64,000 bases of DNA from an uncultured Chloroflexia bacterium (GTDB taxonomy: Bacteria; Chloroflexota; Anaerolineae; JAAYZQ01), in contig CAVOXA010000001.1 of assembly GCA_963700285.1 (NCBI GenBank), positions 1,248,001-1,312,000 of the forward strand. The letters are read 5' to 3'. A program made the translations under genes and the position numbers. Shown piece by piece: positions 615 to 60,528 of this stretch. A model generated the notes under the pieces. The model did no database searches, was not told the origin of the DNA, and was given only the letters and a program-made list of their open reading frames with translations. Position 1 is the first letter of the stretch, and each line of letters opens with the position of its first letter.

Positions 615-1310
615 CTAGTTTTCGCGCATGACCAGCAGCAGGTACAGGCATGCCAGTCGCTCAAAGCGCCAGATCGATGACCAGATTCCCTCCCCACAGT
701 AGTTGGCGGCCCGTACGTGCCAGTTGTAGGTGACGGGCGCGAGGGCGGAGATTGCTGTGAAGCCTGGGTCCGAGGTCGTAACGTTGATGGCCGGTGACGA
801 AAAGCTGTGGTTGTTGTCTGCCTGGATCTGAGAGGAGATTGCCCCCTGCAACGGCAACCACTCGAAGGTGGGTGTGGCTTCGCACGTGCTGCTCCCGTTG
901 TTTGGGGAGGTGAGCACCGGTGTGTTCGGGGCTGGCGTAATACCGACCAGAACCAAAACGGCGCTTTCTTCTGAAATGGCGATGGCCAGGTACAGGTCGC
1001 CGTCCCCATCCAGGTCCCTTGGCACCACGGGCGACGGCCCGCCACCCGCAGCGTAGGCCAGATGCGTGACAAAGGTGCCATCCCCCTGGTTCAGCAGCAT
1101 CGACACGGTGCCGTCCCCTGGTTCAGCAGCACCGAAACAGTGTCGTCAAATCGATTGGCGACAGCAAGGTCCCAATTGCCATCACCGTTCAGGTCGCCGG
1201 CTGCTGTTGCCTCAGGGGAGTGGCCCACAGTGTAGGTCGGTGCAGGTTGAAACTCGGCGGTACCGCCGGCCACCGCCGCGGTGAATTGCCAGACGGTGGG
1301 GGTCAGAGCT
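615..1310 (-). pseudogene. Truncated, frameshifted FG-GAP repeat / FN3-like surface protein remnant
   Basis: GDLNGDGNWDLAVAN and DLDGDGDLYLA repeats are split over ORFs 1091-1513 and 615-1106. Local duplication of CCCTGGTTCAGCAGCA near 1084-1130. FN3-like YNWHVRAAN..G.WS; C-terminus YLLLVMREN; no signal peptide left. Confidence 0.6.
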
Positions 1311-1623
1311 TCCCTATCGTCGTGCTCGATCCGCCTTTTTCCTCGTCTTTCCCTCCCTCGGGAAGAACGTGACTGCAAAATGCGTGCGCGGCCCTGACGG
1401 CGTGGTAGGTGGTCCAGGAAAGAAAACCACCATCCCTTGGCAGTGTACGAATGTTCGTTCAACCGTACCGGCTGCCGGGGCAACACGCATGACTCGGTCA
1501 CCGCTTCGATCATTGATGCGGTGGTGATCGGGGCATGCCGTGAGCCGATGTCAAAGTTGTCATACCAAATACTGGACGGAAAGGTACGGAGTTCTTCTGA
1601 GTGAAATAACTATGTTCTGTGGG

Positions 1624-3135
1624 TCATAGAGAGGGCAGACAAAAGGTGACGGTCGTTCCTAGCCCCTCCTGGCTGTCCAGGGACAACCTGCCGCCGTGTG
1701 CTTCAACCAGGACTCTGGCGATGGCCAGTCCCAATCCACTGCCGCCTTTGGCGCGAGAGCGGGCCCTGTCGGTGCGGTAGAACCGTTCCCCGATACGTGG
1801 AACTTCCTCGGCGGGGATGCCTATCCCCGTGTCTTGCACCTGAACCTGCACCATTTGCGCCTCGATGCTGTTGATGTACACGACTACTGTCCCACCTGCC
1901 CGTGAGTACTTGATGGCGTTGTCCAGCAGATTGACCAGAACCTGTTGGATCCGGTCACCGTCGGCCAGAGCCAGGGGGGCTTTTGTTCCACGTACTTGCA
2001 GGATCGTATCCTTGGCCTGAGCCTGGGAAGCGAACTGGTCCACCGTCTCGCGGGCCAGGCGAACCAGGTCTATCGGCTCCTTCTGCAGATTCAATGCCTG
2101 CGAGTCGGCCCGGGATAGGATCAGCAGGTCGTTGACCAGTCGGGTAAGACGGTCCGTCTCGGTTTCTACCGTCTCCAGAAAGCGGTCCCGTACTTGAGGA
2201 TCGTCGACGGCTCCAGCGCGCAGTGTTTCTACCATTCCCTTGATGGCTGTCAGTGGAGTGCGCAGTTCGTGGGACACATTGGCCACAAAGTCAACTTGCA
2301 TCTGCCGTGCAGCGCGCAAGCGGGCTGTCATTTCATTGAAGGTCTTGCTCAGTTGGCCCAGCTCATCACGGGATCGGACCGGCACCTGTTGATCTAGGTG
2401 CCCTTGGGCAACCGCTGAGGTGGCCTCTGTCAGCCGGCGGACTGGGCGGGCTACGGCCCCAGACAGCACCAGACCAACAGCCCCCGCCAGAACCAACGCA
2501 ATCACTGTCGACACCAGCCACCGGCTGCGCAAATCGTGGAGTACGGCCGTCACGTCATCCAGTGGTTGGCTCAGCAGCGCCACGCCCACTATCTTGTCCT
2601 CAACCAGAACCGGTGCCGCCAGGTGCATAACCGACTCACGGCCAGTTTTTTCCGTACGGCTGGCTTGCTGGCCAGCTAGGGCTTGGGCAACGAGCGCTTC
2701 AGTGCCCATATCGATACCCGCGCCCTCCCCATGAGAATCTACGAGCACCAGGCCATCGGTATCCAGGAGGCGAATGCGTGTGACAAGCTGTGAGCTAAGC
2801 TGGAGGGAAGCATCAGCCAGATAGCCCAGATCCATGGCCTCCGGGGGATGCTCGCCTTCAACTGGCGTGATGTTCTGTGCCTGGAGAGAGATGTTGCTCT
2901 GTCGTTGCTGGATAGTATTGTATGCCGAAGCCGGAGTCTCGGACGCTGCTTCCACCAGGGCCCCAGGGATCAGTGCCTGCACCGTAATCTGTGCTTGCGT
3001 GGCCAAGCTATCCTCCATCGCACGGAGGAAGTAGTTCTCCAGGAGCGATAGCAGCAGCAATCCCGACAACCCCATGGCCACGACAATGACTGCCAGGTGA
3101 CTGAGAGTAAGCCGGGTCCGGATGCTTGAGAACAC
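1624..3135 (-). CDS. Sensor histidine kinase (2 TM, HAMP, HisKA, HATPase)
   Basis: H-box VANVSHELRTPL, N-box NLLDNAIKY, G-boxes DTGIGI and GSGLGLAI. Confidence 0.95.
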   Translation of the reverse strand: MFSSIRTRLTLSHLAVIVVAMGLSGLLLLSLLENYFLRAMEDSLATQAQITVQALIPGALVEAASETPASAYNTIQQRQSNISLQAQNITPVEGEHPPEAMDLGYLADASLQLSSQLVTRIRLLDTDGLVLVDSHGEGAGIDMGTEALVAQALAGQQASRTEKTGRESVMHLAAPVLVEDKIVGVALLSQPLDDVTAVLHDLRSRWLVSTVIALVLAGAVGLVLSGAVARPVRRLTEATSAVAQGHLDQQVPVRSRDELGQLSKTFNEMTARLRAARQMQVDFVANVSHELRTPLTAIKGMVETLRAGAVDDPQVRDRFLETVETETDRLTRLVNDLLILSRADSQALNLQKEPIDLVRLARETVDQFASQAQAKDTILQVRGTKAPLALADGDRIQQVLVNLLDNAIKYSRAGGTVVVYINSIEAQMVQVQVQDTGIGIPAEEVPRIGERFYRTDRARSRAKGGSGLGLAIARVLVEAHGGRLSLDSQEGLGTTVTFCLPSL

Positions 3136-3159
3136 GGTTCCGCTCCTTGCCGCAGAGCC

Positions 3160-3846
3160 TCAAACCAGCAGTTTGTAGCCAACACCACGTACGGTGACGA
3201 TGGGCTTGGCTTCGGGGTCTGCCTCGCGCAACTTGGCCCGCAGGCGTTTGACAGCGGCATCTACGACGCGCAGATCGCCATAGTAGTCATAGCCCCACAC
3301 CTGCTCCAGCAGTTGCTCTCGACTCAACACCTGGCCGGTGTGACTGGCCAGCGTGGAAAGCAGGTTGAATTCCAGTGCCGTAACCTCAAGTTCAGTCTCG
3401 CCCCACCATGCCTCGTGACGCCCAGCGTCCACCCTCAGGGCTCCAGCCCAGACCGTACCCCCTGCGGCCTCTTCGGGACGGGGCGCCGAACGGCGGAGCA
3501 CGTTCCTGACACGGACCATTAGCTCCCGGACGCTGAACGGCTTGACGACATAATCGTCTGCGCCCAGTTCTAGCCCCACGACCCGATCCACTTCTGCGTC
3601 CCGGGCCGTGAGCATGATGATGGGAACGTCCCGTTCCCTGCGAATGGCCCGGCATACCTCCAGGCCATCCAGTCGGGGCAGCATCAAGTCCAGGATGATC
3701 AGGTCGGGCTGGAATAGGCGGGCCTTTTCTAGAGCCTCTTCCCCATCCCGAGCCACGAGCACCTGATGGTGGGCTTGCTCAATGTTGTAGGTGAGCAAGT
3801 CCACGATGGGTGGTTCGTCGTCCACAACCAGGATCCGGGCAGACAC
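3160..3846 (-). CDS. OmpR/PhoB-family response regulator
   Basis: ILVVDDE, DLMLP, GADDYVVKPF, winged-helix C-terminus TVRGVGYK. Confidence 0.95.
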   Translation of the reverse strand: MSARILVVDDEPPIVDLLTYNIEQAHHQVLVARDGEEALEKARLFQPDLIILDLMLPRLDGLEVCRAIRRERDVPIIMLTARDAEVDRVVGLELGADDYVVKPFSVRELMVRVRNVLRRSAPRPEEAAGGTVWAGALRVDAGRHEAWWGETELEVTALEFNLLSTLASHTGQVLSREQLLEQVWGYDYYGDLRVVDAAVKRLRAKLREADPEAKPIVTVRGVGYKLLV

Positions 3847-3875
3847 ATATCCTCCAGGTGGGGCAAGGTCCTACG

Positions 3876-3952
3876 ATCTTAGCAGAGTTTCGAACTGCCG
3901 TCAAGGCGAAATATGGCAGGTTGGCGGCAGGTTGCGGGTAGAAGGATGACAA
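3876..3952 (-). promoter_or_regulatory. sigma70-type promoter of the two-component operon plus four 11-bp-period repeats
   Basis: Minus strand TTGACG (3899-3904), 17 bp, TAAGAT (3876-3881), with TG extension. Repeats CTGCCAT 3913-3919, CTGCCGC 3924-3930, CTACCCG 3935-3941, TTGTCAT 3946-3952. Confidence 0.6.
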
Positions 3953-4089
3953 TCAACCCGCGGAACTGCGAGCCAGCGCCCAGCTAGCCGTGTTCTGCTG
4001 CGGGCTATCTTGCCTAACCTGACCAGCCCGTGTAGAATGAGTGTGAGCTTGGCGAGCGCGCAGAGCGCATGCCTCAAGGAGGGAGACGA

Positions 4090-5376
4090 ATGGTGGATAA
4101 GGTATGGAAACCTACACGGCTGCGCTGGGTCTCATTGGCGGCAATCTGGGTCCTACTGGCCGGTCTGCTCGTCGGCACGGGCGTGCCGGCCCAGCAGTCG
4201 CGTGCTCGGGCCAGAGAGGCCGGTGATCTGCCACCGATTCTACTGGTTTCTCACATTGATGGGCTGGATTGGCCAGTGCACGTCACCCACGCCGGAGACG
4301 GAAGCGGGCGTATCTTTGTCGTGGAGCAAGCAGGCCGGGTCCAGATCATCCGGAATGGAGTCCTCAACGAGACTCCATTCTTGGACATCTCTGGCCGGCT
4401 GTCCTGCTGCGGGGAAAGGGGTCTCCTGAGTATGGCTTTCCCACCAGGTTATAGTGCCAAAGGCCACTTCTATGTGAACTATACGAACAGATCCGGCAAT
4501 ACCGTCGTTGCTCGTTTCCGGGTGACGGCAGATCCTGATGTGGCTGATCCTGACAGCGAACAGATCGTGCTGACCGTTGACCAGCCCTACAGCAATCACA
4601 ACGGTGGCCAATTGGCCTTCGGGCCCGGCGATGGCTATCTGTACGTCGGCATGGGTGATGGCGGGTCGGCGGGAGATCCCCAGAATCGTGCCCAGAATCC
4701 GTCAACGCTGCTGGGAAAACTGCTGCGCATTGATGTCGAAGCGGGGGATCCGCTCAGCTATACGGTGCCCGCAACGAATCCTTTCCGTGACGTGCCGGGT
4801 TACCGCGATGAGATCTGGGCCCTGGGGCTGCGCAATCCGTGGCGGTTCTCATTTGATACCAAAACCGGTGACCTGTACATTGGGGATGTGGGCCAGGGTG
4901 GCTTTGAGGAGATAGACTACCAGCCGGCCGCCAGCACTGGAGGCGAGAACTATGGCTGGCGCATCATGGAAGCCAGCCACTGCTTCAACTCGCCGGACTG
5001 CGATCCCTCTGGATTGACCCTGCCCGTTGTCGAGTATCCCAACCCGCCAGGCAGGTGTGCTTCTGTGACCGGCGGCGTCGTCTATCGTGGGGTCGAATAC
5101 ACGGGGTTGGAGGGTGTATATGTCTACGGCGACTATTGCAGCGGGCGCATTTGGGGACTAAAGAAGACTGTCTCAGGCTGGCAGGATGACCGTCTTTACG
5201 ATGCTCCCTTTTTGATCACCAGTTTTGGCTTGGATGAGTCGGGTGGACTGTGGGTCGTCAACTACAAGGACGGCCCGCTGGGTGCCATCTATCAAATTGC
5301 GGAGGCCCGCGCTGTCGCCTACCTCCCTTTTCTCTCCAGACCGCGAGGTCAAGAAGCTGCCCATTCGAATAATTAA
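4090..5376 (+). CDS. Secreted PQQ-dependent glucose/sorbosone dehydrogenase-family protein
   Basis: Signal peptide; GERGLLSMAF, NHNGGQLAFG, GDGG, GLRNPWRFSFD, GDVGQ, NYGW. C-terminal YLPFLSR. Start chosen from RBS GGAGGGAG. Confidence 0.9.
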   Translation: MVDKVWKPTRLRWVSLAAIWVLLAGLLVGTGVPAQQSRARAREAGDLPPILLVSHIDGLDWPVHVTHAGDGSGRIFVVEQAGRVQIIRNGVLNETPFLDISGRLSCCGERGLLSMAFPPGYSAKGHFYVNYTNRSGNTVVARFRVTADPDVADPDSEQIVLTVDQPYSNHNGGQLAFGPGDGYLYVGMGDGGSAGDPQNRAQNPSTLLGKLLRIDVEAGDPLSYTVPATNPFRDVPGYRDEIWALGLRNPWRFSFDTKTGDLYIGDVGQGGFEEIDYQPAASTGGENYGWRIMEASHCFNSPDCDPSGLTLPVVEYPNPPGRCASVTGGVVYRGVEYTGLEGVYVYGDYCSGRIWGLKKTVSGWQDDRLYDAPFLITSFGLDESGGLWVVNYKDGPLGAIYQIAEARAVAYLPFLSRPRGQEAAHSNN

Positions 5377-5388
5377 TCTAGTTTTAAC

Positions 5389-5417
5389 TTGACAAATTAA
5401 GGAAAGGGGTGTATAAT
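5389..5417 (+). promoter_or_regulatory. Perfect-consensus sigma70 promoter of SOD
   Basis: TTGACA (5389-5394), 17 bp, TATAAT (5412-5417); AT-rich upstream. Confidence 0.85.
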
Positions 5418-7060: not shown

Positions 7061-9802
7061 TCAAGCAGGCTGGGACTGGGCCATCCTCCGTAGAATCGTG
7101 TGCAGCACGCCGCCGTTGCGATAGTACTCGACCTCCACGGGCGTGTCCAGACGGGCCACAGCACTAAAGATGGTTTCAGTGCCATCTTCCCTTCGCCCGC
7201 GGACCGTCACCTCCTGCCCGGATTCGAGTTCGCCAGCGATGCCTGTGACGTCGAATACCTCCCGGCCGCTCAGGCCCAGACTCTCTGCATTCTCGCCGGG
7301 CTGGAACTGCAGCGGAAGCACGCCCATGCCCACCAGGTTGCTGCGATGGATGCGCTCATAGCTCTCGGCAATGACCGCCTCGAACGCCCTGAAGGAGCGG
7401 GCCCTTTGCCGCCCAGTCGCGGGAACTGCCGGATGCCGTACTCCCGTCCAGCCAAGACGATCAGCGGCGTGCCTTCGCTTGGTAGCGCATCGCGGCATCG
7501 TAGATGCTCATCTCCTCGCCGCTGGGGAGATGGAGCGTAACGCCGCCCTCGGTGCCGGGCAGCAGCAGGTTCTTGAGGCGGATGTTGGCAAAGGTGCCGC
7601 GCATCATCACCTCGTGGTTGCCGCGCCGCGACCCGTAGGAGTTAAAGTCGCGCTGCTGTACTTCCCGTTCCAGCAGATATCGACCAGCCGGGCCGTCGGC
7701 AGCAATGCTGCCCGGCGGGCGAGATGTGGTCGGTGGTCACCGAATCGCCCAGAAGAGCCAGCACGCGCGCGCCGTGGATGTCCTGCGTGGGCGGCACCTC
7801 AGGCGCCAGGTCCACAAAGAACGGGGGTTCCTGGATGTAGGTGGAAGCCGGCATCCCAGGCGTAGAGCTCGGCAGCTTCCGGCGCGGGAATGGCGTTCCA
7901 GGTCTCGTTTCCTGTGAACACGTTGGCGTACTGCTCCCGGAACATCTGCGGATCAAGGGCGGCGGCAATCGCCTCCTGGATTTCGGACTGGCTGGGCCAG
8001 ATGTCGCGCAGGAAGACAGGCTGGTCGCCCACGTCGCAGCCCAGCGGTTCCGTGTGAAAGTCTACGTCTACCGTGCCGGCCAGGGCGTAGGCCACCACCA
8101 ACGGCGGCGAGGCCAGGTAGTTGGCCCGCACGTGGGGGCTGATGCGCCCCTCAAAGTTGCGGTTCCCAGACAGGACTGCGGCAGCCACCAGGTCAGCCTC
8201 TTCGACAGCCTGGGCGACTGCTTCGGGCAGAGGGCCGCTGTTGCCGATGCAGGTCGTGCAGCCATAGCCCACCACGTTGAAGCCAAGTTGATCGAGATAG
8301 GGCGTCAGTCCTGCAGCGTCCAGGTAGCGGGTGACCACCGTCGAGCCGGGCGCCAGGCTGGTCTTGACATAGGCCGGCACACTCAGGCCCCGCTCCACCG
8401 CCTTCTTGGCCAGTAGGCCCGCGCCGATCATCACCGAGGGGTTGGAGGTGTTGGTGCAACTGGTGATGGCGGCAATGACCACAGCGCCGTGCCTCAGTGT
8501 GCTTTCGCCCTTCCCGTTGGAAGCCGCTACGGTTGCCCTTCGGCTCACCTCTTCCTCGCTGAGGGCAAATCCGCGCTGAGCGGTGGGTGCCCGCAGAGCC
8601 GTCTGGAATGCGGGTTTCATGTCCCGCAGGGGGATGCGATCCTGGGGGCGCTTGGGGCCAGCCAGGCTCGGCTCCACGGTGCTCAGGTCCAGCGTCAGAG
8701 TGTCCGAATATGCTGGCGTTGGTGTGTCGTCAGTGCGAAAGAGGCCCTGGGCCTTGGTATAGCGCTCCACCAGGTCGACCAATTCGGCGAGGACGTCCGG
8801 TGCTGCGCAGATAGCGCAGGGTCTCATCGATCCACAGGAAAAAAGCCCATGGTCGCGCCATATTCGGGCGACATGTTGGCCATGGTCGCCCGGTCGGGCA
8901 GGCTGAGGCGGCTGGTCCCCGGGCCAAAGAACTCGACGAACTTGCCCACTACACCCTCTTGGCGCAGCATCTGGGTCACGGTCAGCACCAGGTCGGTGGC
9001 CGTCGCCCCCTCGGGCAGCTCGCCCGCCAGCTCAAAGCCGACCACCTCTGGCGGCAGCATGGTGATCGGCTCGCCCAGCATGGCCGCCTCGGCCTCGATG
9101 CCGCCCACACCCCAGCCCATGACGCCCAGGCCGTTGATCATGGTCGTGTGCGAATCGGTGCCCACCAGGGTATCGGGAAAGCAACCCAGCTCGCCATCGG
9201 CCTCCTGACGCTTGGTCACGACAGTGGCCAGGTACTCCAGGTTGACCTGGTGGACGATGCCGGTGGCGGGTGGCACCACGCGAAAGTTGTCAAAGGCGTT
9301 CTGCGCCCAGTGCAGGAACTCGTAGCGCTCGCGGTTGCGCTCGAACTCACGCTCGGCGTTGAAATAGAGCGCCGCGTTGCTGCCAAACATGTCTACCTGG
9401 ACCGAGTGGTCGATGACCAGATCCACCGGTACCTGGGGATTGATGCGCCCAGGATCGCCGCCCAGCCGGTGCATGGCCGAGCGGAGCGCCGCCAGATCGA
9501 CCACGGCCGGCACGCCGGTAAAGTCCTGCAGCACCACGCGGGCCGGCTTGAAGGGCAGCTCGCTGGAACCCGGTGACTTGGGCATTCCAGCCCGCCAGGT
9601 TCTTGACGTGCTCCTCGGTGATCTCCCGGCCATTGCACTGGCGCAGCAGGCCTTCCAGCCAGACGCGAATGGAGAAGGGCAGCCGATCCAGATCGGCCAG
9701 ACCCAGTTCTGCCAGTCGCCCCAGCCGGTAGATGGCGACTGGACCGGCGCCTGTCTGGATTGTCGTTCGGGCGCCAAATGGATCAAGGGGCTTACCTGTC
9801 AT
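7061..9802 (-). CDS. acnA: Aconitate hydratase A (several frameshifts, probably assembly errors)
   Basis: Across frames: [108 protein letters not shown] at 9802 with RBS AGGAGGAG. Confidence 0.93.
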
Positions 9803-12916: not shown

Positions 12917-13774
12917 TCAACCCTTGCGTCCGGCGATGATGAGATGCTGATTGACAAAGCTCGCCTCGGGCGTGCCCCAGGAACTCGGCTGCATCCAGTC
13001 CCTGACTGGTTCGGGTGCTTCCTCGACCATTGCTACCAGGCGCTCGATGACCTCCGGCGTGCAGCCCTGGCGCTCGGCCCAGGGATACAGGCTGTGAACC
13101 TTGACAATCTGTTCAGTATCCTCAACGGCTAGCCCGGCTGCCTCAAACATGGCCCGCCACTCCCTCTCCGAACATGCCCGGTGGTGGCTGGGATCTCGCA
13201 ACCGTTCGAAATCGTTGATGTAGCGGGCGGCTTCAGCGTCCTCTGGCAACGCATGGTCTTGGACCAGCAGCAATCCCGGTACCTTCAGTACTCGTGCGCT
13301 CTCTAGCACAAAGCGAGCGGGGTTGGGGAAGTGGTGCGGTGCGATTCGGCAAGTGACAAGGTCGAAACTGCCATCGTCGAAGGGCAACTCCTCGGCATCA
13401 GCCGGTTCAAAGACCACATTCTTGATTCCCTGGCTTTCTATGAAGGCTCGGGCTTTCTCCAGCATCCTGGGCGTGATGTCGGTCGCTGTCACCCGGGTGA
13501 CATGGGACGCGAATTTTAGGGCAGTGTGTCCGCCTCCTGTCGCAATGTCCAGAACGACCCAGCTGGGTTGCGGCTGAGCGATCTCAACTAGGCGGTCCAA
13601 CTCTTGCCCCTTGGCATGGGTCGCACTTGTGACGTATCCTTCGGCGAATCTGGTGTATCGTTGCTGCGAGAGAGCTTTTGCGTCGAAATCGTCGGTCATC
13701 TCGTCACTCCCGGCAGCATCCCTTGCCGGCCCTTCTCGGGTACTGGCTCGGTACCCGGAATCCTTCCTAGTCAT
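12917..13774 (-). CDS. Class I SAM-dependent methyltransferase (YcgJ/YafE-like); alternative start 13699
   Basis: VLDIATGGGH, DAEELPF.DGSFDLVTCRIAPHHF, ERLRDPSH. Confidence 0.9.
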   Translation of the reverse strand: MTRKDSGYRASTREGPARDAAGSDEMTDDFDAKALSQQRYTRFAEGYVTSATHAKGQELDRLVEIAQPQPSWVVLDIATGGGHTALKFASHVTRVTATDITPRMLEKARAFIESQGIKNVVFEPADAEELPFDDGSFDLVTCRIAPHHFPNPARFVLESARVLKVPGLLLVQDHALPEDAEAARYINDFERLRDPSHHRACSEREWRAMFEAAGLAVEDTEQIVKVHSLYPWAERQGCTPEVIERLVAMVEEAPEPVRDWMQPSSWGTPEASFVNQHLIIAGRKG

Positions 13775-15035
<1,261 letters not shown>

Positions 15036-15054
15036 GTGCTCTGCTCTCCTCCGG

Positions 15055-16479
15055 TCAGGACTCTGACGAGCCCAGCCTACTCGAGCCTGTCCGGCCTCGG
15101 ATTCGCCGAACCTCGTCAGCCCTGAGCTTGGCTGCGATGGCCCCGGTCAGCCGCTCCCGCAGCCCTTCCAGGCTCTCCGGCAGGCGGTCCAGCGACGGCT
15201 GGAAAAAGCCCTCGACGATCAGGCGGACGGCCTCATCGCGGGGGATGCCCCGGCTCATCAGATAGAAGACCTGGTTCTCGTCCACCTGGCTCACGGTCGC
15301 GCCGTGGGTGCAGCGCAGGTCATTGGCCTCGATCTCCAGCTCGGGCAGCGAGTCGGCCCGCGCCTTCTTGGACAGCAGCAGGTTGCGGTTCGATTGGTAG
15401 GCATTGGTCTTTTGCGCACCAGGCCAGGCGCGGATGGTGCCCTCGTAGACCGACCGCGACCTGCCCAGCAGCGCGCCCTGATAGAGCAGGTCGCTCATGC
15501 AGTTGCCGGCGACGTGGTCCTGCAGGGTGTCAAAGGCCATGTGCTGCTTGCCGTCGGGCAGATACAGGCCGGTGACCATGGCCTCGCCGCCCGGCTCGCG
15601 CAGGATGCTGTGCTGCGTCGAGCGGCTCACGCCGCCCGCCCAGGCTCACCGTCAGCCACTCCAGGCGGCTGTCGCGATCCAGCAGTGCCGTCTGGGTGCG
15701 CAGGTCATACACCTGGCGGCCAAGATCCTGGGCATTGATATAGCGGACCCGGGCGCCGGCTCCCACGTACAGCTCGGTGACGCCGCCGTGATAGGTGTCG
15801 GGGCAGGCGTCACAACCCATGGAGAGCAGTTCCGAGACCAGCGTCACGCTGCTGCCTTCCTCGGCGATGAGCAGGGTGGGCGGAAAGACGGCCAGTTGTG
15901 GCATCTCCTGCCACAGCACCGAGACGAAGGGCAGGTCGACGCGTCACGTTCTTGGGCACGTAGAGAAAGGTGCCGCCGCTCCAAAACGCGCATGCAGGGC
16001 CGTGTACTTGTCCGCCGTCACCGGCACGGCCTCTTCCATAAAGTACTTTTGCACCAGCTCGGGATGCTCCCGCACCGCGGTGTCCATATCGGTCCAGATC
16101 ACGCCCTGGGCCCGCACCTCGTCGGCCAGGTCCAGGTAGACGCGCGCCGAATCGCGCTGCAGCAGCAGCCCGGCCCGCTGGCCATAGATCGCCAGCGCCT
16201 CGTGCAGCTTGGGCGGCAGGGCCTCCAGATCCGTCGACCGGCGCCTGGGGCGGCGCGTAGGGGATCAGTTCCTCCCACTTGAGCTTGCTGATGTCGGTGC
16301 GCCGCCAGAACGGGGCTCCAATCTCCTGATAGTGGTACCAGCCCTCGTAGCGCTTCTCCAGCATCCAGTTGGGCTCGTCCCGGCTGGCCGACAGGGCCTC
16401 CAGCTGCCTCCCGGCGTAAAGCCCCTGGGCTGGCAGGGTCGGTCTTGCTTTCCTGTTCAATCGTCGCAGCTATGTCCAC
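15055..16479 (-). CDS. sufD: Fe-S assembly protein SufD (frameshifted)
   Basis: WRRTDIS, FWSGGTFLYVP, QKTNAYQSNRNLLLS, PELEIEANDLRCTHGATV, FYLMSRGI. Confidence 0.88.
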
Positions 16480-16531
16480 GGTTTCATCCCTCGATTGCAT
16501 GATCCGCGGATCTGGCCTTCTGGCCCCAGAC

Positions 16532-17942
16532 CTATCCCACCGATCCTTCCATCTCCAACTGGATCAGGCGGTTCATCTCCACGGCGTACTCCATCGGCAG
16601 CTCTTTGACGATGGGCTCGATAAAGCCGTTGACGATCATCATCATCGCCTGCTGCTCGGAGATGCCCCGGCTCATGCAGGTAGAAGAGCTGCTCGTCGCT
16701 CACCTTGCTGACCGTGGCCTCGTGGCTGATGCTGGCATCCTCTTCGTCGATCTCCATCACCGGATAGGTGTCGGAGCGCGAGTGCTCGTCGAGGATGAGC
16801 GCGTCGCAGACCACGTTGCTCTTGACGCCCTTCGGCGCCCTTGTAGACCTTGACCAGGCCGCGATAGCCGGCCCGCCCGCCGCCCTTGCTGATCGACTTG
16901 GAGGTGATGCTGGAGGTGGTGTGCGGCGCGCCGTGGATCGCCTTGGCGCCGGCGTCCTGGTGCTGGCCCTTGTTGGCAAAGGCGATGGACAGGATCTCGG
17001 CCCTGGCCCCCTTGCCCATCATGTAGACGGAGGGGTACTTCATGGTCAGCTTGCTGCCCAGGTTGCCATCGACCCACTCCATCGTCGCGTCCTCGTGGGC
17101 CACCGCCCGCTGGGTCACCAGGTTGTAGACGTTGTGGCTCCAGTTCTGGATGGTGGTGTAGCGCACGCGCGCGCCCTTTTTGACAATGATCTCGATGACG
17201 CCCGAGTGGAACGAGTCGGTGCTGTAGGTCGGCGCCGTGCAGCCTTCGACATAGTGCACCTGCGAGCCCTCGTCGGCGATGATCAGCGTCCGCTCAAACT
17301 GGCCCATGTTCTGGGCGTTGATGCGAAAGTAGGCCTGCAGCGGGAATATCGACCTTGACGCCGGGCGGGATGTAGACAAAGCTGCCACCGCTCCACACCG
17401 CGGTGTTCAGGGCCGCGTACTTGTTGTCGGCGGCGGGCACCACCGTGCCAAAGTACTCTTTGTAGACCTCTTCATACTCGCGCAGGCCGGTGTCGCTGTC
17501 GACAAAGACGACGCCCTGGCGCTCCCACTCCTCTTTCAGGCTGTGGTAGACGGCCTCGGACTCGTACTGTGCGCCCGCACCGGCCAGGAACTTGCGCTCC
17601 GCCTCGGGGATGCCCAGCCGGTCAAAGGTGCGCTTGATGTCGTCGGGCACCTCGTCCCAGGTACGTCCCTGCTGCTTCGACCGGCTTGATATAGTAGTAG
17701 ATGTCGTCGTAGTCCAGCCTGGACAGATCGCCGCCCCAGGTGGGCATCGGCTTGGCGTAAAAGATGTCCAGGGACTTGTGTCGCATGGCGCGCATCCAGT
17801 CTGGCTCGCCCTTCATCTACGAGATCTCGTCGACGATCTCGTGGTCCAGACCCTTGCGGCTCTTGAACACATAGTTTTCATCATCGCGGAACCCGTACTT
17901 GTAGTCGTCCAGGTCCACGCCCAACACAACATTGTCAGACAT
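16532..17942 (-). CDS. sufB: Fe-S assembly protein SufB (frameshifts plus one in-frame TAG)
   Basis: [81 protein letters not shown]. Confidence 0.93.
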
Positions 17943-18020
17943 GTCCAATCCTTTCCGCTAGCGGATCAACCAGGCCCGAATCTGGCTTTCAGGCAGCCGG
18001 CACTCGGAGAATGGAACTCT

Positions 18021-18805
18021 TCACTCGGCTCCCTCTTGCACCCAGTCGTAGCCCCTTTCCTCCAGCTCCAGGGCCAGCTCCGGGCCGCCCGACATGACAA
18101 TCGGCCGTTCACCAGGATGTGGACGTGCTCCGGCTTGATATAGTCGAGGATACGCTGATAGTGGGTGATGACCAGCACACCCAGGTTGGGACTCATCAGC
18201 TCGTTCACGCCTTCGGACACGATGCGCAGGGCATCGATGTCCAGCCCCGAGTCGGTCTCGTCCAGGACGGCGATCTCGGGCTGGAGCATGGCCATCTGCA
18301 AGATCTCCATCCGCTTTTTCTCGCCGCCGGAGAAGCCGTCGTTCAGATAGCGGCGGGCAAAGCTGGGATCCATCTTGAGCATGGCCATCTTTTCTTTGAG
18401 CAGCTCGCGAAACTCGCGCATGGAGATGCCCTTCTTGGCCCCATTGCCGTTGCCGGGTACATCGGACTCTGTGCGCACGGGCGTTGAGGGCCGTCCGCAG
18501 AAAGTTGGCCACGCTTACCCCTGGGATGGCGCTGGGATACTGGAACGCCAGGAACAGCCCCAGCCGCGATCGCTCGTCGGGCGACATTTCGACGATGTTC
18601 TCGCCTTTGAACCAGATCTCGCCGCTCGTCACTTCGTAGGCGGGATGGCCCATCAGGGTGTTGGCCAGGGTGCTCTTGCCCAGAGCCGTTGGGCCCCATG
18701 ATGGCATGGATCTCGCCCTCTGTTCATCTCCAGATTGAGCCCCTTGAGGATCTCCTGACCCTCGACATTGACATGCAGGTTCTTGATCAGCAGATCAGCA
18801 CTCAT
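18021..18805 (-). CDS. sufC: Fe-S assembly ATPase SufC (frameshifted)
   Basis: MGPNGSGKST (split), [44 protein letters not shown] overlap with sufR. Confidence 0.93.
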
Positions 18806-30828: not shown

Positions 30829-32355
30829 CTAGTATTGGATCTGGAGATGATAGGGTTGCTTGCTGCCCAGCCCGCTGGCATTGTGGATCTGGATGTAGTA
30901 GTGCCCAGCCGGTATCGTGGCCTCGACGAACTCATCCTGGTTGCCCAACGACAACGAATACCATCCTGGATGCGTTGCGAGATTGTCATCCCGGAGCACG
31001 AGATCGTAGTTATGCCCGGCTGGGATATTCTTGAGCCAAAGCTTGACGCTGCCCTGTGTGGACAGATCGAAAAAGTAATAATCCTTTACATCCTGCCCAC
31101 TGGGGAAGGCACCGTAATAGACCAAGCCTGACACGAGGGGACCGTTGGCTTGGAGGGAGGCGTCGTCGTTCGGCTCTTTTTCCCAAAAGACGTCTACCCT
31201 CTCGACCTTCGACCAGGCGCTGTCTCCCCATCGATTCTGAGCCTTGACCCGGTAAAAGAACCGTGTTGCGCCCTGTCCTACCACTTGAAAGACGGTACCT
31301 GGCCCAGCGTATCGCTCCAGTGCAGAGGCAAAGTTAGAGTCCCTGGTTTCCTCCAGAACGTAGGTCTCGGCCCCGACGGCTGCATCCCACCGGATAGCAT
31401 AGGCGCCGTCACCATCCGTATTGTCAATCGCCTGCAGCGCCGGGGCCCCAGGCAAGGGAGGCCAGCGTTGCATGACCGTGGGCAGAAAAGCCCGCCATTT
31501 TCCATCGTCGTCCAGAACAGTCACAGTCACATCGTCCGGCTTGAGGCCGTCGTAGGCAGGGTCGCTGCTGATACTGGGTCCGACCTGAATCAGGCAGATC
31601 TGCTCTCCATCTTCCTCGATGTCGTCGCTGGCTGATACCCTCGCTTCTGTACCGCTGTCCCAGTTCTCTTGATCCAGGATGACTGAAGGAGGTGAGATGG
31701 TGCACTCGTTGTTGGATGCAGCCAACGGGATGGTGACAGTCACGCCAGGTGAGCTCGTGATAGTCAGTGTAAAAACGGCCGTTCCATCCGGTTCGGCCAC
31801 GGTCAAGCTGGTAGGGCTAACACCGATTGCGGTCGTGTCATTGTCCTCAATGGTGGCGGTCAGCAGTACAGGATCCAGACCCGTGTAGTCAGGGTCGGTA
31901 CTGGCAGTGTAATGAGTGACAGTTCCACTGTGCAGCCCTTCAGCTACAGCGTCGTCCTCAGCCCAGACAGATACTTGCTGAGGCACATCCCAGTCGCCGG
32001 CATCAAAGATCAGCACGCCAAGGCTAACCGCAGTCTGGCTGTCTGCAGAGACCGAGACGATCACGGGCGTGGAGGGTTTCTTTGTCAAGACTACCTGATA
32101 GGTGGTCGGGGGGCCCCCCTCCGCCAGATCCACAGACGATGGCTCCACACTCAGGCCCGGTTTGGCCGACGTGGTTTGAGGCTCAGGCTGGCTGACAGAA
32201 AGACCATCCAATGATTCTGTTGTGAGCGGGCTAGGATTGACTCCAGTGTAATCTGCCTGCACTGCTTTTGCTGGCACGAACAAGGCACAGAGCAAGGCCC
32301 ATGCAACGGCCCAACTGGCTGCAGTCCTTCTCCTGCTGCGCACTAGCACTTTCAT
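30829..32355 (-). CDS. Secreted protein: two Calx-beta/Ig-like modules, LP motif, FN3, PPC-like domain
   Basis: Signal peptide ending VQA; repeated W..PQ.V.V.A.DD...EG....S.DP.Y; FLPTVMQRWPP; FFYRVKA.N.WG.S.WS; EKEPND; DYYFF; NYDLVL. Confidence 0.8.
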   Translation of the reverse strand: MKVLVRSRRRTAASWAVAWALLCALFVPAKAVQADYTGVNPSPLTTESLDGLSVSQPEPQTTSAKPGLSVEPSSVDLAEGGPPTTYQVVLTKKPSTPVIVSVSADSQTAVSLGVLIFDAGDWDVPQQVSVWAEDDAVAEGLHSGTVTHYTASTDPDYTGLDPVLLTATIEDNDTTAIGVSPTSLTVAEPDGTAVFTLTITSSPGVTVTIPLAASNNECTISPPSVILDQENWDSGTEARVSASDDIEEDGEQICLIQVGPSISSDPAYDGLKPDDVTVTVLDDDGKWRAFLPTVMQRWPPLPGAPALQAIDNTDGDGAYAIRWDAAVGAETYVLEETRDSNFASALERYAGPGTVFQVVGQGATRFFYRVKAQNRWGDSAWSKVERVDVFWEKEPNDDASLQANGPLVSGLVYYGAFPSGQDVKDYYFFDLSTQGSVKLWLKNIPAGHNYDLVLRDDNLATHPGWYSLSLGNQDEFVEATIPAGHYYIQIHNASGLGSKQPYHLQIQY

Positions 32356-32499: not shown

Positions 32500-34210
32500 T
32501 CACTCGTATGCGGCCCGCAGGTGGTAGGGCTGCGAGCTGCCGCCTCCATCCCGGTGGAAGACCTGGATCAAGTAGCGTCCAGCGGGTACCGAGACCTTGA
32601 TATACTCGTCATTGTTGAAAAGCTGAGCTGAGTAGCCCTTGGTGTTCAAGTTGATATCACGCAGGACCAGGTCATAGTTCTGTCCGGCAGGGATGTCTGT
32701 CAAGCGGAGCTCCACGGCGCGCCTGGTGGGCATTACAAAGTAAAAGTAATCGCTGACGTCTTGAGCCCCCGGGGGAAAAGTTCCAAAGTAGGTCAGACCG
32801 GACATGATGGGACCGTTTGCCTCGGCTGCGGAGTCGTTGGGCTCGGCCTCCCACAGCACGTCCACCTTCTGCGCGTTGGACCACGAACTCTCACCTGAGG
32901 GGTTTCGAGATTTGACGCGATAGAAAAGCCTGGAGGCGCCGTTTCCCACCACCTCAAAGGCAGTGTCCGCCCCCACATAGAATCTCTTGGGTCCCCTGGA
33001 AGCTGTTGTCTGTGGCCTCTTCCAGGATGTAGGTCTTGGCCCTAGCGGCGGTGCTCCAGTTGACCGAGTAGTCTCCAACGCCACCGGGGTTCAGGATGGG
33101 CTGCAGGGATGGTGTCTCGGGTACCGGGGGCCAGATTCGAATTATGACTGGCAGTAGGGCCGTTTGCGCCAGGGCCCCCCCCACCCTGGTTGACTTGGGC
33201 AGGCTCCATCCGCTCATAACACCGCCGGGCCCGTTGGCCCGCACATGGTAGTACCAGATACCCTCAGGCTGATCCTGAACCTGATAGTCGTTGTTGGCCC
33301 CCAGGTAGCGCGTGGTCGGGCTGTTGAACGCCGCATTGTCGTCCTCCTGCAGGGTATAGGAGCTGGCGCCGGCCACCGCGCTCCACGCCACGAGGTAGTT
33401 GGGTTCGTTGTCGGGGTTCACAATGTCGAAGAGCTGCGGGACACCGATGATCACCGTGGCCGACACCGTATTGGACGGACGACTGACTGTCCCGGTGCCA
33501 ATGGCAAAGACCCGGTAGTACCAGGTGCCCGGAGCCCTGTTTGGGAGCACCACCTCAGAATCGGGACCAGTATAGACAGAGGCCGGCGAGTCAAAAGCGC
33601 TACTGATATCCTCCTCGAGCACGTACGCCACGGCCCCCGTTACTTCACTCCACGCTACCAAGTAGCTGCCGTCGCCGTCCTCATTGTCGATCTGCTCCAG
33701 CACTGGGGCTGCCGGCTTGATGAAAATGTCTGCATCCGCGGGCGGTACGTCGGGAAGCGTGCCCGCGCTGCCCTTGAGCGTGAGCGATGCTGTGTTTGTT
33801 GCCATCTGGCCAGCGCCCCCGATCACCTTCATCCTGAAAGTGACGACCTGAGTGCGGTTCATCTTGAGCGTGCCGTCCCACATCACACTCTCAGTCACTG
33901 GCGGCACAGCCGGGACATAGGCAGCGTCACCCGTGATCGAGTCCTGCACGATTTCGAACCAGGCTGGCTTGGGATTCCTGTCGATCACGGTCAGCTCGGC
34001 GTCCTGGACCCATCTGTTTCGGAAGGTCAGCGTGATCTCCACCTCATCGCCTACATCCACGCCGTCCTCTGGGGTAGTACTCTTGGACAGCGTGAAATCG
34101 GCCAGGGGATCTTGCGGCTCGGCAACAGCGCCAGAGGCCACGGAAACGGTGGCGATGATGAAAACAAGGACTAGTCTGGCGACGTGCATGGCACGGCGTC
34201 TAGGGGCCAT
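32500..34210 (-). CDS. Secreted protein: DUF11-like, FN3 x2, LP motif, FN3, PPC-like domain (frameshift near 32980)
   Basis: Signal peptide; three Y.V.WS...A..Y.L.E....F...Y.G..YYRV repeats; LLPVIIRIWPP. C-terminal module (ORF 32500-33084) is clearly paralogous to that of 30829-32355. Confidence 0.8.
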
Positions 34211-54789: not shown

Positions 54790-54802
54790 TCAGAGGCGGC
54801 GC

Positions 54803-55145: not shown

Positions 55146-55151
55146 ATCCAA

Positions 55152-55940: not shown

Positions 55941-56162
55941 GTCACCGAGACCGCCCGCGCCGACAACGCCGCCCTGGCCGAGGCCGCCCGTGACATCGTC
56001 CAGGCCCTGTCCGGGATGCGCGCCCAGGGTTGGATCGACGACGCCACCGCCATCCAGCTCGCCTTCAAGTTCGCCGGCGAGACCATCCCCCAGGAGGAGA
56101 TCGAGCGCATCCTTGAAGCCTGTGGCGAGCGAAGCGAAGCCAACCCTGCCCCTGGACCGTAG
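55941..56162 (+). pseudogene. Start-less coding fragment resembling a phage portal C-terminus
   Basis: Strong GC3 codon bias: VTETARADNAALAEAARDIVQALSGMRAQGWIDDATAIQLAFKFAGETIPQEEIERILEA...*. Identity inferred from recalled similarity and its position before a MuF-like ORF. Confidence 0.35.
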
Positions 56163-56179
56163 CCAAGAGCCGCCCGCCG

Positions 56180-56551
56180 ATGAGCCAGAAGCCTGAGCCG
56201 CCGCCCGAGGAGCCACCCTATGAACCACCCGTCCCGGTCCCCTTTCCCTGGCATCCCTGGTACCCGTGGCCACCGGGCACCGAGCCGCCAGCTGACCTTC
56301 ACCTCCACTACCACAACGCCAACCCCAACCCGGCCAGGGTCTGCCCCGTCTGCCAGACCGACATCGGCAAGGTCTTCCGCCTCGAAGACGCGCCCAGGCT
56401 GCCCCGCCACCCACACTGCTACTGCTTCTACGTCGTCACTGACGCGCCAGTCACCAAGGAAGGAAACGCGCCCATGACCGGCCGCGCCGAGACAGCTTGC
56501 ACCGGCCATCTCCCCATCTCCCTCTCACCCCCTCGCCCCATCGAACCCTGA
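56180..56551 (+). CDS. Small protein with phage head-morphogenesis (Mu gpF/SPP1 gp7)-like Cys/His motif
   Basis: RVCPVC...PRLPRHPHCYC resembles the C..C...P.HPNCRC signature; Pro-rich N-terminus. Confidence 0.45.
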   Translation: MSQKPEPPPEEPPYEPPVPVPFPWHPWYPWPPGTEPPADLHLHYHNANPNPARVCPVCQTDIGKVFRLEDAPRLPRHPHCYCFYVVTDAPVTKEGNAPMTGRAETACTGHLPISLSPPRPIEP

Positions 56552-56799
56552 CCTCGGCCTCAACCCTTAGCGCTGCAAGGCGCCTCATTATGCCCAAAGA
56601 CGCCCCGATCCAGAGCGAACAATCCGAAAATCCCACCAGCCCGATACCCCTGCCAATCAGGCCCACGCACGCACTGGGTCATCCACGAATGTTGGCCACG
56701 AATACACGAATGGTGGCTGTGGGGCACAATCGATTATTCCCGGTTAATTCGTGTGAACAGGGCTACCGAGGGTAACTACCGCACTGTTATCATTTAAAG

Positions 56800-56828
56800 T
56801 TGACAAAAATACACTGAATACGTATAAT
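56800..56828 (+). promoter_or_regulatory. Perfect-consensus sigma70 promoter of the SBBP/InlB gene
   Basis: TTGACA (56800-56805), 17 bp, TATAAT (56823-56828). Confidence 0.85.
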
Positions 56829-56910
56829 TAGCCTTGTTTTACTTTGTCGCCAGCCCAGGCAGTTTAGCGAGCCTGGATAGCATCCACTGAGGAGCAGGAA
56901 GGACGGAATC

Positions 56911-59900
56911 ATGACCCGCATTTCCACCGCTTGCATTGGACCCTTGCTCGCGCTGACCCTGATCGTCACCGCTGTCGTGGGCCCCATCAACCGCCGGGCC
57001 GCTCTGGCCCATCAGGGGCCCCAGCGTACCAGGCCGGCCGTGGAAGCTCCAGCTCGCCCCGCGAATCCCAGTCCTGAGGCCCTATTGCGGACACTGGACC
57101 AGATGCCTCTCAGCTTCGAGGCCAATCAGGGTCAGTTCGCCACGCCTGTGCATTTTACCACCCGCCAGGCTGGCGGCATTTTCTTCTTCACTACCCACGA
57201 GATGGCGGCGGTGTTCCGCCGGACAACGTCCGACTCTGCTTTAGCGGAGGATCTGGAGATAGAGGGCGAAGGGGAGGGGTCGTTGCCGTACCTTGAGTCC
57301 GAAACCCTCGCCCTCAAGGTCCACTTTCTTGGCGCCTCCCCCACGGTCGAGATAGAGGGACTGGACCCTCTGCCCGGCAGGGTCAACTACTTCAGCGGCA
57401 GCGACCCAGTCCGCTGGCAACAGGCCGTGCCCACCTACGCCACCATCCTCTACCACAATCTCTATCCCCACACTGACCTGCGCTACTCCGGCGTGGGCGG
57501 CCGGCTCAAGTACGACTTTCTCCTGGACCCAGGGGCCGAGGTAGACCGCATTGCCCTGGCCTACACCGGGGTGGAGGGATTGGAGCTCAACGGCGCGGGC
57601 CAACTGCAGGTCAGGACCGCCTGGGGCACCCTGGTGGAAGATGCCCCCCTCGCCTGGCAGACGGGCGAGGCGGGGCGCCGCGAGCCGGTCGCCGTGCGCT
57701 ACCGGCTCCAACCAGGTGACATTGTGGGCTTCCAGGTGGGCACCTATGATCCTGCCCGGCCTCTGGTGATCGACCCCACGCTCCGCTACGGCACCTATGT
57801 CGGAGGCGGCAGTGTTGAGCACGGCCGCGACATTGCGGTCGATGGCGAAGGGAACGTTTTAGTCACTGGCTCCACCCAATCCTCCGACTTTCCCACAACG
57901 GCCGGGGCCTTCGACCGCAACCGCGCCGCCGGCCAGGACGTCTACGTCCTCAAGCTGGCGGCGGACGGAAGTGGTCTGCTGTTCAGCACTTTTGTAGGGG
58001 GTAAGGAGAGCGAGTCGGGCTTTGGCCTGGCCCTGGATGGCGATGGGAATCCCGTGGTCGTCGGCTGGGCCTGGTCCTCGGACTTTCCCACTACTTCCGG
58101 GGCTCACGACACCAGCTATGGTGGGAACAGGGACGCCTTTGTGTTCAAGCTGTCGGCCGACGGCAGCAAGCTGCTGTTTAGCACCTTTGTAGGCGGTAGT
58201 GAGCGCGACGCCATCTATCCGGTGCAGGTTGATGGCGACGGGAACGTCATCCTCACCGGCTATACGCTTTCCACAGACTTTCCCACAACCGCTGGGGCCT
58301 ACGATGGCACCCACAATGGTGACAAGGAGATCATCGTCTGTAAGCTGTCCCCAGATGGGAGCGAGCTGCTGTTCAGCACCTTTGTTGGAGGCAAGCACAT
58401 GGACCTTGGCCGCCACATTGTCCTCGACAGCGCGGGCAACTATGTCGTCACTGGCTACACCTGGTCCTCCGACTATCCCACCACCCCTGACGCCTATGAC
58501 CGCACCCACGGTGGGGGAGAGCGCGACATGTTCCTCCTGAAACTGTCCGCTGACGGAAGTACGTTGCTGGCTAGCACCTACGTCGGGGGCAGCGGTGATG
58601 AACGCGGCCGTGGCTTGGCGCTGGATGGGCAGGGCAATCCCGTCATCGCCGGCTATACCAGCTCCTCCGATTTCCCCACCACGCCTGGCGCATACGACAC
58701 CACTTACGGTGGCGCATACGACATCTATGCCCTCAAGCTATCGGCCGACGCCACCACGCTACTGTACAGCACCCTGGTCGGCGGCAGCCAGAACGACTAT
58801 GCCCGCGGGATGGATATGGACGCCTCGGGCAACATCTTTGTCGTTGGGGATTCCTACTCGAGCAGCTTTCCCACCACCCCTGATGCCTTTAGCACCAAAG
58901 GCAATGGAGGTCTGGACGCAGTTGTCCTGAAACTGTCGCCGGATTTAGTTCCCTGCTTTACAGCACCTTTGTGGGGGGCAGCGGTGAGGAGCAGGGACAC
59001 GAACTGGCGCTAGACGGGAAGACCGGTGTCGTGATCACCGGCCACACCAAGTCCAGCAACTTTCCCACCACCTCCGGTGCCCATGATCGCACCTACAACG
59101 GCGACCAGGACCTGTTCGTCTTCTACCTCGACGGGCTGACCGGGCAGGGGCACACCTTGACTGTAAACGTCTCCGGCAGCGGCACCGTGACCAGGGACCC
59201 GCACAAGTCCGCCTATCAATCCGGAGAGCAGGTCAAGCTGACGGCCAGCCCCAGCCCGGGCTGGGGCTTCTCCGGCTGGTCGGGCGACCTCTCCAGCAGT
59301 GCCAATCCGGCTACCCTCACCATGGATGGCAACAGGTCCGTTACCGCCACCTTCACTCAGAATCAATTCACCCTCTCTGTCAACGTCTCCGGCAGCGGCA
59401 CCGTGACCAGGGACCCGCACAAGTCCGCCTATCAATCCGGAGAGCAGGTCAAGCTGACGGCCAGCCCCAGCCCGGGCTGGGTCTTCTCTGGCTGGTCGGG
59501 CGACCTCTCCAGCACTGCCAACCCAGCCACCCTCACCATGGATGGCAACAAGTCCGTCACCGCCACCTTCACCCAGGACCAATACACCCTCTCCGTCAGT
59601 GTCTCTGGCAGCGGCTCGGTGGCCAAGTCGCCCGACCAGGCGGGTTACCACCATGGCGACCAGGTCCAACTCACTGCCAGCCCCAGCGCCGGCTGGACCT
59701 TCACTGCCTGGTCCGGGGACCTGACTGGCGCCGAGAATCCGGCCACCCTCACCATCGACGGCACCAAGTCCGTCACCGCCACCTTTGGCCAGAATGGGTA
59801 CACGCTGACCGTGAACGTCGATGGCAGCGGTTCCGTGAGCAGAGCCCCGGAGCAGGCCGTCTACGTGCTCGGCGAAGAGGTGCAGCTCAGCGCCACCCCA

Positions 59901-60528
59901 GATCCTGGCTGGTCGTTCTCCGGCTGGTCCGGCGCCCTGACCGGCGCTGAGAATCCGGCCACCGTCATCATCGGCGGCGACGAGATGGTCACGGCTGCCT
60001 TCACTCAGAAAGAGCACACCCTGACTGTGAGCATCACCGGCAGCGGGGACGTGACCAAGGCGCCCGATCAGGCCAGCTACCATTACGGCGACCAGGTCCA
60101 GCTCACCGCCAGCCCCGGCGCAGGGTGGCTCTTTGCCGGCTGGTCCGGCGACCTCTCCGGTGGTGACAACCCGGCCAGCCTAACCATCGACGGCGACAAG
60201 GTCGCAACCGCCATCTTTGGACAGACGTGCCACACCTTGAGGCACGGAGGCCAGCCCCGAGGAGGGCGGCTCAATCAGTGTCGACTATGACCCCAATTGC
60301 GACGACGCTGGCGTCGCCAAGTACGTTATTGGCACCGTCGTCCAACTGACCGCCAGCCCTGCCCCGGGCAGGTTCTTTAGCCACTGGAGCGGCGACGTCA
60401 CAGGAAACGCCAATCCCACCAGCCTGTCTGTGAGCGCGGATGCCTCGGTCCTTGCTCACTTCCAGGAGACGCAGATCCTATTCCTGCCCATGCTCCTGAC
60501 GGGGCCATATTCGCTGTCATTCCCTTGA
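56911..60528 (+). CDS. Large secreted surface protein: N-terminal domain, 7 SBBP propeller repeats, 6 InlB B-repeat-like domains (frameshifts near 58950 and 60240-60290)
   Basis: Signal peptide; FEANQGQ, LVIDP; seven STFVGG...D..GN....G.T.S.DFPTT repeats; six LTV.V.GSG.V...Y..G..V.LTA.P..GW.F.GWSGD repeats; ends QILFLPMLLTGPYSLSFP*. Confidence 0.88.

Follow-up and report, generated by a model that had tools for sequence, protein, structure and literature searches.

A YLP-box tag on secreted Chloroflexota proteins and a candidate tetrad socket predicted to accept it as a missing strand

The DNA analysed here, referred to as the window, is a 64,000-nucleotide stretch from an uncultured Chloroflexia bacterium (GenBank assembly GCA_963700285.1, contig CAVOXA010000001.1, positions 1,248,001 to 1,312,000 of the forward strand). 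Five of its genes carry copies of a short hydrophobic motif, the YLP-box, which is also present on many other exported proteins of the same genome. This tag is probably a portable docking strand, which after export plugs, uncut and non-covalently, into the strand-less first domain of a secreted, four-domain protein of the ASRT fold, the candidate socket, and so holds its cargo in the envelope. The tag would supply exactly the strand that domain 1 of the socket is without, and it would be through this pairing that the cargo is kept in the cell envelope. The tag itself, its enrichment among exported proteins, its portability, the four-repeat socket gene and natural fusions with a YLP-box in the socket's slot can all be read from the sequences.

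A sequence-only reading of this stretch had claimed five related peptides in exported proteins, and these were confirmed at every coordinate:

5320..5340, plus strand: YLP-box YLPFLSR, stop 11 residues downstream, 15.4 bits
60481..60501, plus strand: YLP-box FLPMLLT, lacking the Arg/Lys, stop 8 residues downstream, 8.2 bits
624..644, minus strand: degenerate YLP-box YLLLVMR, with Leu (CTG codon, 636-638) for Pro, 7.3 bits
31465..31488, minus strand: internal YLP-box FLPTVMQR, ahead of a Pro-rich linker and an FN3-PPC module, 219 residues before the stop, 13.0 bits
33137..33157, minus strand: internal YLP-box LLPVIIR, preceding the same kind of FN3-PPC module, 10.5 bits

The genes that carry these copies are, in the same order:

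4069..5376, plus strand: secreted glucose/sorbosone (pyrroloquinoline quinone-type) dehydrogenase, intact, with a C-terminal tag (PF07995, E 1.4e-35; hydrophobic N-terminus)
56911..60528, plus strand: SBBP beta-propeller and InlB-B-repeat protein, in three frames in the assembly (PF25778, PF06739, PF18998)
615..1106, minus strand: remnant of an FG-GAP/FN3-type gene whose 5' part is not intact (PF13517 below cut-off)
30829..32355, minus strand: secreted immunoglobulin (Ig)-like/FN3/PPC protein, intact and internally tagged (PPC match below cut-off, E 4e-5; hydrophobic N-terminus)
32500..34210, minus strand: secreted DUF11-like/FN3/PPC protein with an internal tag (frame change near 32980)

The scores come from a matrix derived from 56 tags that belong to other genomes; in a shuffled proteome, the score of each window copy arises with a probability of no more than 5e-5 per site. 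Relative to the consensus h-[YF]-L-P-h-h-h-[RK], where h is hydrophobic, the fit of the copies ranges from 7.3 to 15.4 bits, and the canonical form occurs at the same place in relatives or paralogues. The closest relatives of the dehydrogenase have YLPLLLK, YLPILLK and YLPLVLR where the window has YLPFLSR, and the motif also closes seven further InlB-repeat proteins of this genome, in the same column as FLPMLLT. Similarly, the FG-GAP remnant is 39% identical to the last 100 residues of a paralogue on contig C22 that ends in HLPLVTRGIR. Three of the five window copies are C-terminal, and both FN3/PPC copies are internal, lying about 220 residues from the protein end. The last 28 residues score above zero on the matrix in only two of the called window genes, namely those whose tag ends a called frame.

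The motif is already catalogued. Two NCBIfam models, NF050076 (sort_motif_YLP) and NF053834 (ultrashort_CTERM), describe a "YLP-box putative sorting motif-containing protein", and match 36 and 28 sites of this genome, respectively (E up to 10), largely the same as those found with our own matrix; none of these matches falls inside the window. The window copies represent the same motif as the catalogued YLP-box, but they lie below both models and two of them are internal. The sequence-only reading had allowed that an existing characterised family might account for the motif. It is indeed modelled by NCBIfam, but only as a putative sorting motif, in a description that names neither partner nor mechanism, and no mechanism paper was found. 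More generally, no paper on the YLP-box appeared in the literature searched, with most subscription papers lying beyond the reach of that search. As judged from its sequence, the window holds loose copies of a listed but unexplained motif.

Throughout the genome, for which a set of 6649 of our own gene calls was used, the tag is present on about 60-70 proteins (approximately 1% of the total), mostly at the C-terminus. The pattern lies within 25 residues of the C-terminus in 47 of its 175 matches, as compared with 4-9 in five shuffles, and a matrix derived from 42 tags of this genome finds 65 sites of at least 15 bits where 6 would be expected by chance. The predicted enrichment among exported proteins was borne out: with signal peptides assigned by a hydrophobicity rule without SignalP, a rule that mislabels fragments, tails of at least 10 bits were found in 35 of 370 proteins with a signal peptide and no transmembrane helix versus 21 of 3543 others. 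The corresponding odds ratio, calculated with a matrix independent of this genome, is 17.5, and shuffles lead one to expect 2.3 such tails. Among 24 (of 25) tagged frames that were not called exported, 16 have extracellular-type domains and six belong to no family; the remaining two are fragments of ABC-ATPases and represent false matches. Those relatives that carry a name belong to Chloroflexota, for the most part to Anaerolineae.

Several arrangements of tagged genes lie elsewhere in the genome. More than 12 of them form a dense cluster at C10:1571786-1701737. Tagged mini-proteins of 80-100 residues, in which only a signal peptide and a short Gly-rich domain precede the tag, are encoded at C10:1571786-1572094, 1574654-1574947 (L002) and 1288399-1288638 (L010), and belong to a large unnamed Chloroflexota family. 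Three genes for C25 (gingipain/PorU-like) proteases stand in tandem at C7:28441-38774 (L011), with a fourth at C10:2089657-2090970 (L064), and all of these bear a YLP-box. The genome also has five sortase genes, as against only three clear LPxTG-plus-helix tails in the called set.

Comparison of homologues reveals how freely the tag is placed. Among the window dehydrogenase and its 119 best relatives, it is C-terminal in 39, N-terminal after the signal peptide in 10, and situated in an inserted loop in five, while 66 of the 120 are without a tag at the threshold used; none of the 119 relatives has two tags. The strand is therefore not an integral part of the preceding fold, which the sequence-only reading had named as a refuting outcome. 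Furthermore, many relatives stop where the propeller ends, and the tag strand therefore lies outside the propeller fold. One relative, P0314, has an SLH domain in place of the tag. Likewise, of 95 longer relatives of a 97-residue tagged protein, 30 end in an FlgD-Ig domain (two of them with a Por-tail as well) and none of these is tagged, whereas 18 others are; one has a Pfam dockerin. Tag and FlgD-Ig are thus mutually exclusive in this set. On these alignments, the tag is a portable element that acts as an anchor would. That it works at either end of a protein or in a loop is hard to reconcile with cleavage and transpeptidation. Five relatives of this same mini-protein (P0064, P0082, P0088, P0092 and P0093) have a very short tail, DLIF[RM]DGF[ED], in the slot of the YLP-box or FlgD-Ig domain.

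A match to the tag matrix also identified a possible partner:

C10:832446-833786, outside the window: candidate socket, a secreted, single-copy protein of 446 residues with four repeats

Repeats 2-4 of this protein begin with TIGLPLIMR, EVSLPLIMA and KVSAPLIMA, each an h-x-[LA]-P-L-I-M strand, while repeat 1 follows the signal peptide directly and begins one strand further on. The Pro of the repeat strands is invariant in the 115 rows of the alignment, and the repeat-2 strand averages 9.6 bits on the tag matrix. Distant relatives of the socket contain TFYLPLIQR, SAYLPTLFK and EIFLPLLQH. The AlphaFold2 model of the socket (predicted local distance difference test score, pLDDT, of 96) has a first domain that is one strand short. 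Its best fold match is the eight-stranded beta-sandwich of TM1070 (1nc7), with a Z-score of 14.0 and a root-mean-square deviation of 2.6 over 107 aligned residues, followed by ASRT (Z 9.1) and then by rows at 6.0. Residues 1-114 of the 1nc7 chain align on residues 91-200 of the model, which identifies the LPL strand as the first of the fold. The Asn that closes strand 2 is invariant at N117 and N224 and at least 90% conserved at N13 and N335 in the 115-row alignment.

In the socket family, Trp is absent from the commonest residues in the columns around the three LPL strands, where the strand-1 Trp was looked for. The Pfam ASRT and DUF5719 models matched neither this socket nor eight distant ones, while three of three close relatives, which had been picked for the label, reach the DUF5719 cut-off. 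No solved structure was found to be related to the socket by sequence, the alignment search returning only a weak match to an S-layer Ig domain (E 0.008), and Foldseek produced mostly generic multi-Ig rows. NCBIfam has no model for the socket, and the corresponding Atlas clusters are without names.

In all eight stand-alone sockets inspected domain by domain, the first strand is missing, and among the 40 of 78 socket loci that were parsed, 39 have no such strand before domain 1. The single exception, the long fusion L137, has YLPYLAKG at this position. Only two of the 78 loci have a tagged neighbour gene. Upstream of the socket gene in the present genome lies a run of genes labelled by eye as glycosyltransferase-like and radical S-adenosylmethionine-like (L021:1-9800, corresponding to C10:824001-833800).

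In order to model the pairing, the socket was submitted to complex prediction with the last 30 residues of the window dehydrogenase, in three runs and with three controls, against a pass mark that is reached by 116 of 157 solved pairs and by two of 215 mismatched pairs. The complex score was 0.77, as compared with 0.01 for the best control; contacts agree by at least 62% between runs, and the pLDDT of the partner is at least 32. The socket's fold and the filling of its gap by the window tag are predicted features. In the model, tag residues 406-420 contact domain 1 and part of domain 2, with Y411, L412 and P413 contacting S61, V63, A72 and Q116, of which S61 and Q116 are invariant in the 115 rows. 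The 50 interface residues have a conservation of 0.82, versus 0.70 for the rest of the socket.

Natural fusions provide a view of the same slot in cis. In L052 and L055, which are fusions of a cargo with a tetrad in tag-poor genomes, the strand RLYLPVVLRG occupies the otherwise empty slot, and similar strands are present in L049 and L050. In the model of the L137 fusion, the YLPYLAKG ahead of domain 1 forms a strand whose pattern is that of the internal repeats. The fusions L049, L050, L052 and L055 possess the first strand of domain 1, but end before the last strand of domain 4, and may therefore offer a different open edge.

The distribution of tag and socket was compared across 250 genomes of the phylum, with the tag counted by NF050076 matches. 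The socket family is present in 13 of 13 genomes with at least eight matches, 12 of 12 with 4-7, 11 of 26 with 2-3, 13 of 48 with one, and 16 of 151 with none, so that all 25 tag-rich genomes (at least four matches) have it. Outside the phylum, the socket was found in four genomes labelled delta-proteobacterial and one labelled Acidobacteriota, all five of which also have BamA. These outer-membrane genomes have 26, 22, 13, 25 and 5 NF050076 matches (E up to 2), and of 12 tag loci viewed there, 11 are in real-looking frames, 10 of these being C-terminal. A strand-less socket also occurs on a contig labelled Brocadiaceae (L157), where it may reflect transfer or misbinning. The idea of a display tag is supported, in the form of a short beta-strand tag for lineage-typical surface display, but the tag is not confined to Chloroflexota. 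Of the co-occurring partners that profiling had been proposed to find, the socket, as a non-covalent receptor, is the stronger branch, and a protease or transpeptidase the weaker.

A number of observations weigh against the proposed docking of tag and socket. NF050076 can match the socket's own strands, which confounds the bins with low counts, and the 25 tag-rich genomes span only seven families. C25 proteases are found in 25 of these 25 genomes and in nine of the 151 without NF050076 matches; they fit the profile as well as the socket does, and the profile alone therefore cannot choose between them. The genomes G106, G149 and G205 have stand-alone, strand-less sockets but only 0, 0 and 1 NF053834 matches (E up to 10), implying that their tags have diverged or that the socket has another job there. 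One of the three complex runs did not dock (0.02, relative to 0.88 and 0.77 for the other two), and the pass may come only from the resemblance of the tag to the repeats within the socket. The socket itself has neither a membrane helix nor a recognised anchor. In the window, no copy reaches either curated cut-off (15 or 10 bits for NF050076 and NF053834), although other proteins of this genome do, and the copies are degenerate, one being without the Pro and one without the Arg/Lys.

Support is also weak for the high expression that a single socket gene would need in order to serve approximately 60 types of cargo. Contigs of four metatranscriptomes start about 77 bases ahead of the socket gene and span it, with little of its neighbours, and RNA contigs from three studies begin 77-78 bases before the gene. 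These runs were selected by the socket gene itself, and so carry little weight as evidence of expression. Codon bias was uninformative as a proxy, with little signal genome-wide and a rank of 247 of 3913 for the socket.

Other explanations of the tag must be set beside docking for retention. It is unlikely that the tag binds the tetrad only for the tetrad to act as a carrier, taking the cargo through a second export step over the outer layer, in the manner of type IX C-terminal signals, and then releasing it. The tag does stand in for FlgD-Ig and Por-tail domains in relatives, the system is also present in outer-membrane genomes, and Chloroflexota have outer layers of unknown make-up (PMC7332563 and PMC13319060, in the parts available). 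However, no conserved translocon was identified, tags are often internal or N-terminal, and the same slot is also filled by plain anchors, dockerin and SLH. In addition, the modelled tag has its Leu and Pro buried in a hydrophobic core, which points to a stable complex. The proposal that the peptide has no protein partner, and instead either inserts into an outer layer of lipid or other hydrophobic material or associates with its own copies, is very unlikely. Its composition, with an aromatic residue, five hydrophobic ones and a basic end, would suit an interfacial anchor. Such an anchor would not account for the near-invariance of Leu-Pro, for the resemblance of the tag to a single strand of one conserved protein, or for the cis fusions.

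Enzymatic readers of the tag were considered as well. Gingipains are Arg/Lys-specific and PorU has a sortase role, and a C25 protease of this kind could read the tag, cut after its Arg/Lys, and attach or release the cargo. Beyond the co-occurrence given above, this is favoured by the presence of Arg or Lys at position 7 in 51 of 60 C-terminal tags. Yet in eight of the 60 the seventh residue is the last of the protein, leaving nothing to cut; a cut of this sort could not attach the cargo of N-terminal and loop tags; the four C25 proteins that are full-length in this genome are themselves tagged; and C25 was found in none of the five tag-bearing genomes outside the phylum, whose assemblies are incomplete for this search. 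Such a protease is therefore distinctly unlikely to be the reader. Finally, a sortase might recognise the Leu-Pro of the tag as a variant of LPxTG, and the genome does have five sortases for few LPxTG-plus-helix tails. The tag, however, is without Thr-Gly or a membrane helix, its position is free, and sortase, too, was found in none of the five genomes outside the phylum, so that this reading is barely credible.

Returning to the window, the genes that carry the tag were re-examined for their termini and integrity. As the sequence-only reading had it, they appear to encode exported proteins with no later transmembrane helix, lipobox or LPxTG motif, and the hydrophobicity rule recognised a hydrophobic N-terminus in all four genes that include a start. 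Neither an LPxTG motif nor a membrane helix with a basic tail is present on the tag proteins of the window. They also have no hydrophobic stretch of 19 residues after the signal peptide and no match to a PEP-CTERM or GlyGly-CTERM model, and a Pfam scan found no Por-tail or FlgD-Ig domain on window proteins. These four had further been taken to be intact, which holds for two of them, but the SBBP/InlB gene changes frame near 58945 and 60245-60265 in this assembly, and the second FN3/PPC gene does so near 32980. An unbroken 1205-residue copy of the SBBP/InlB protein, with the same tail, is encoded on contig C13. The surrounding 5.5 kb (window 55941-61415) has a second copy on this 32-kb contig, with 98.7% DNA identity and 12 gaps, and this represents either a duplication or a second strain. 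Housekeeping-like genes at 7061-9786 and 13767-18478 are likewise in pieces, and are presumably aconitase-like and Suf-like. Since several window genes are called in pieces, indel errors in the assembly are likely. The frame changes of the tagged genes and the Leu-for-Pro codon may be either genuine or errors of the assembly.

For docking of the tag into the socket to retain proteins, binding would have to take place in the cell, and we infer that each socket would hold one cargo. The socket would itself be held by wall polysaccharide, or form part of an envelope layer. A more far-reaching version is conceivable, although we would put slightly less than even weight on it. Here, the tetrad would be an abundant four-domain ring, a structural unit of the outer or protein layer that is still unexplained in filamentous Chloroflexota, with one open groove per ring, and would support an enzyme-free display system throughout the phylum. 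Any exported protein could join the envelope by gaining a strand of 7 to 10 residues at either end or in a loop. The system would have arisen by the splitting of cargo-tetrad fusions, and would have moved as a pair into outer-membrane bacteria. Chloroflexota are described as having outer and protein layers of unknown make-up, and no such protein is named in the parts consulted of the two papers (PMC7332563, PMC13319060).

How proteins are retained in a many-layered envelope is the question in Chloroflexota, where the YLP-box has been an orphan signal. The naming of a candidate partner, together with a predicted interface, makes this signal answerable by one experiment. If the proposal is correct, it would explain how dozens of different secreted proteins stay in the cell envelope, by a sorting route that requires neither sortase nor lipid nor membrane helix, and would furnish a candidate component of an envelope layer. 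Moreover, a ten-residue tag and a 420-residue socket could become a tool for coupling proteins.

The socket resembles the ASRAH/ASRT superfamily (TM1070, 1nc7; ASRT, 2ii7; DUF5719) in its fold, its tetrad arrangement and the Asn closing strand 2. In the parts consulted, De Souza et al. (2009; PMC2739507) report that members of this superfamily form tetramers or occur as fused tetrads, and that those secreted in Chloroflexi are predicted to bind wall sugars. The tetrads reported there are fused to amidases, whereas a stand-alone tetrad with a missing first strand, or a cargo tag, is not described in those parts; the supplement lists superfamily sequences and may include sockets. The socket differs from ASRT in the absence of the strand-1 Trp.

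Completion of a fold in trans has a precedent in the donor-strand complementation of chaperone-usher and type V pili, in which a strand of one chain completes the unfinished beta-sandwich of another, as is proposed for the YLP-box. Strand complementation is thus a known principle, but no publication was found in which it serves as a general route of sorting. Every pilus subunit combines an acceptor groove with a spare donor strand, while the socket has four domains and three LPL strands, each folded into its own domain. Without a spare donor strand, the socket would not polymerise in the fashion of a pilus. Unlike in pili, moreover, the donor here is a tag of 7 to 10 residues on dozens of unrelated cargoes.

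As a short motif near the C-terminus of unrelated exported proteins, the YLP-box also recalls the LPxTG/sortase, PEP-CTERM/exosortase and GlyGly-CTERM/rhombosortase systems. It departs from these in having no membrane helix or basic tail, a free position, and no sign of cleavage. In other lineages, the same slot on the same passenger domains is taken by dockerin (with its cohesin), SLH and the type IX C-terminal domain. Display modules of this kind comprise some 50-100 residues and are folded domains, whereas the YLP-box is a single strand without a fold of its own.

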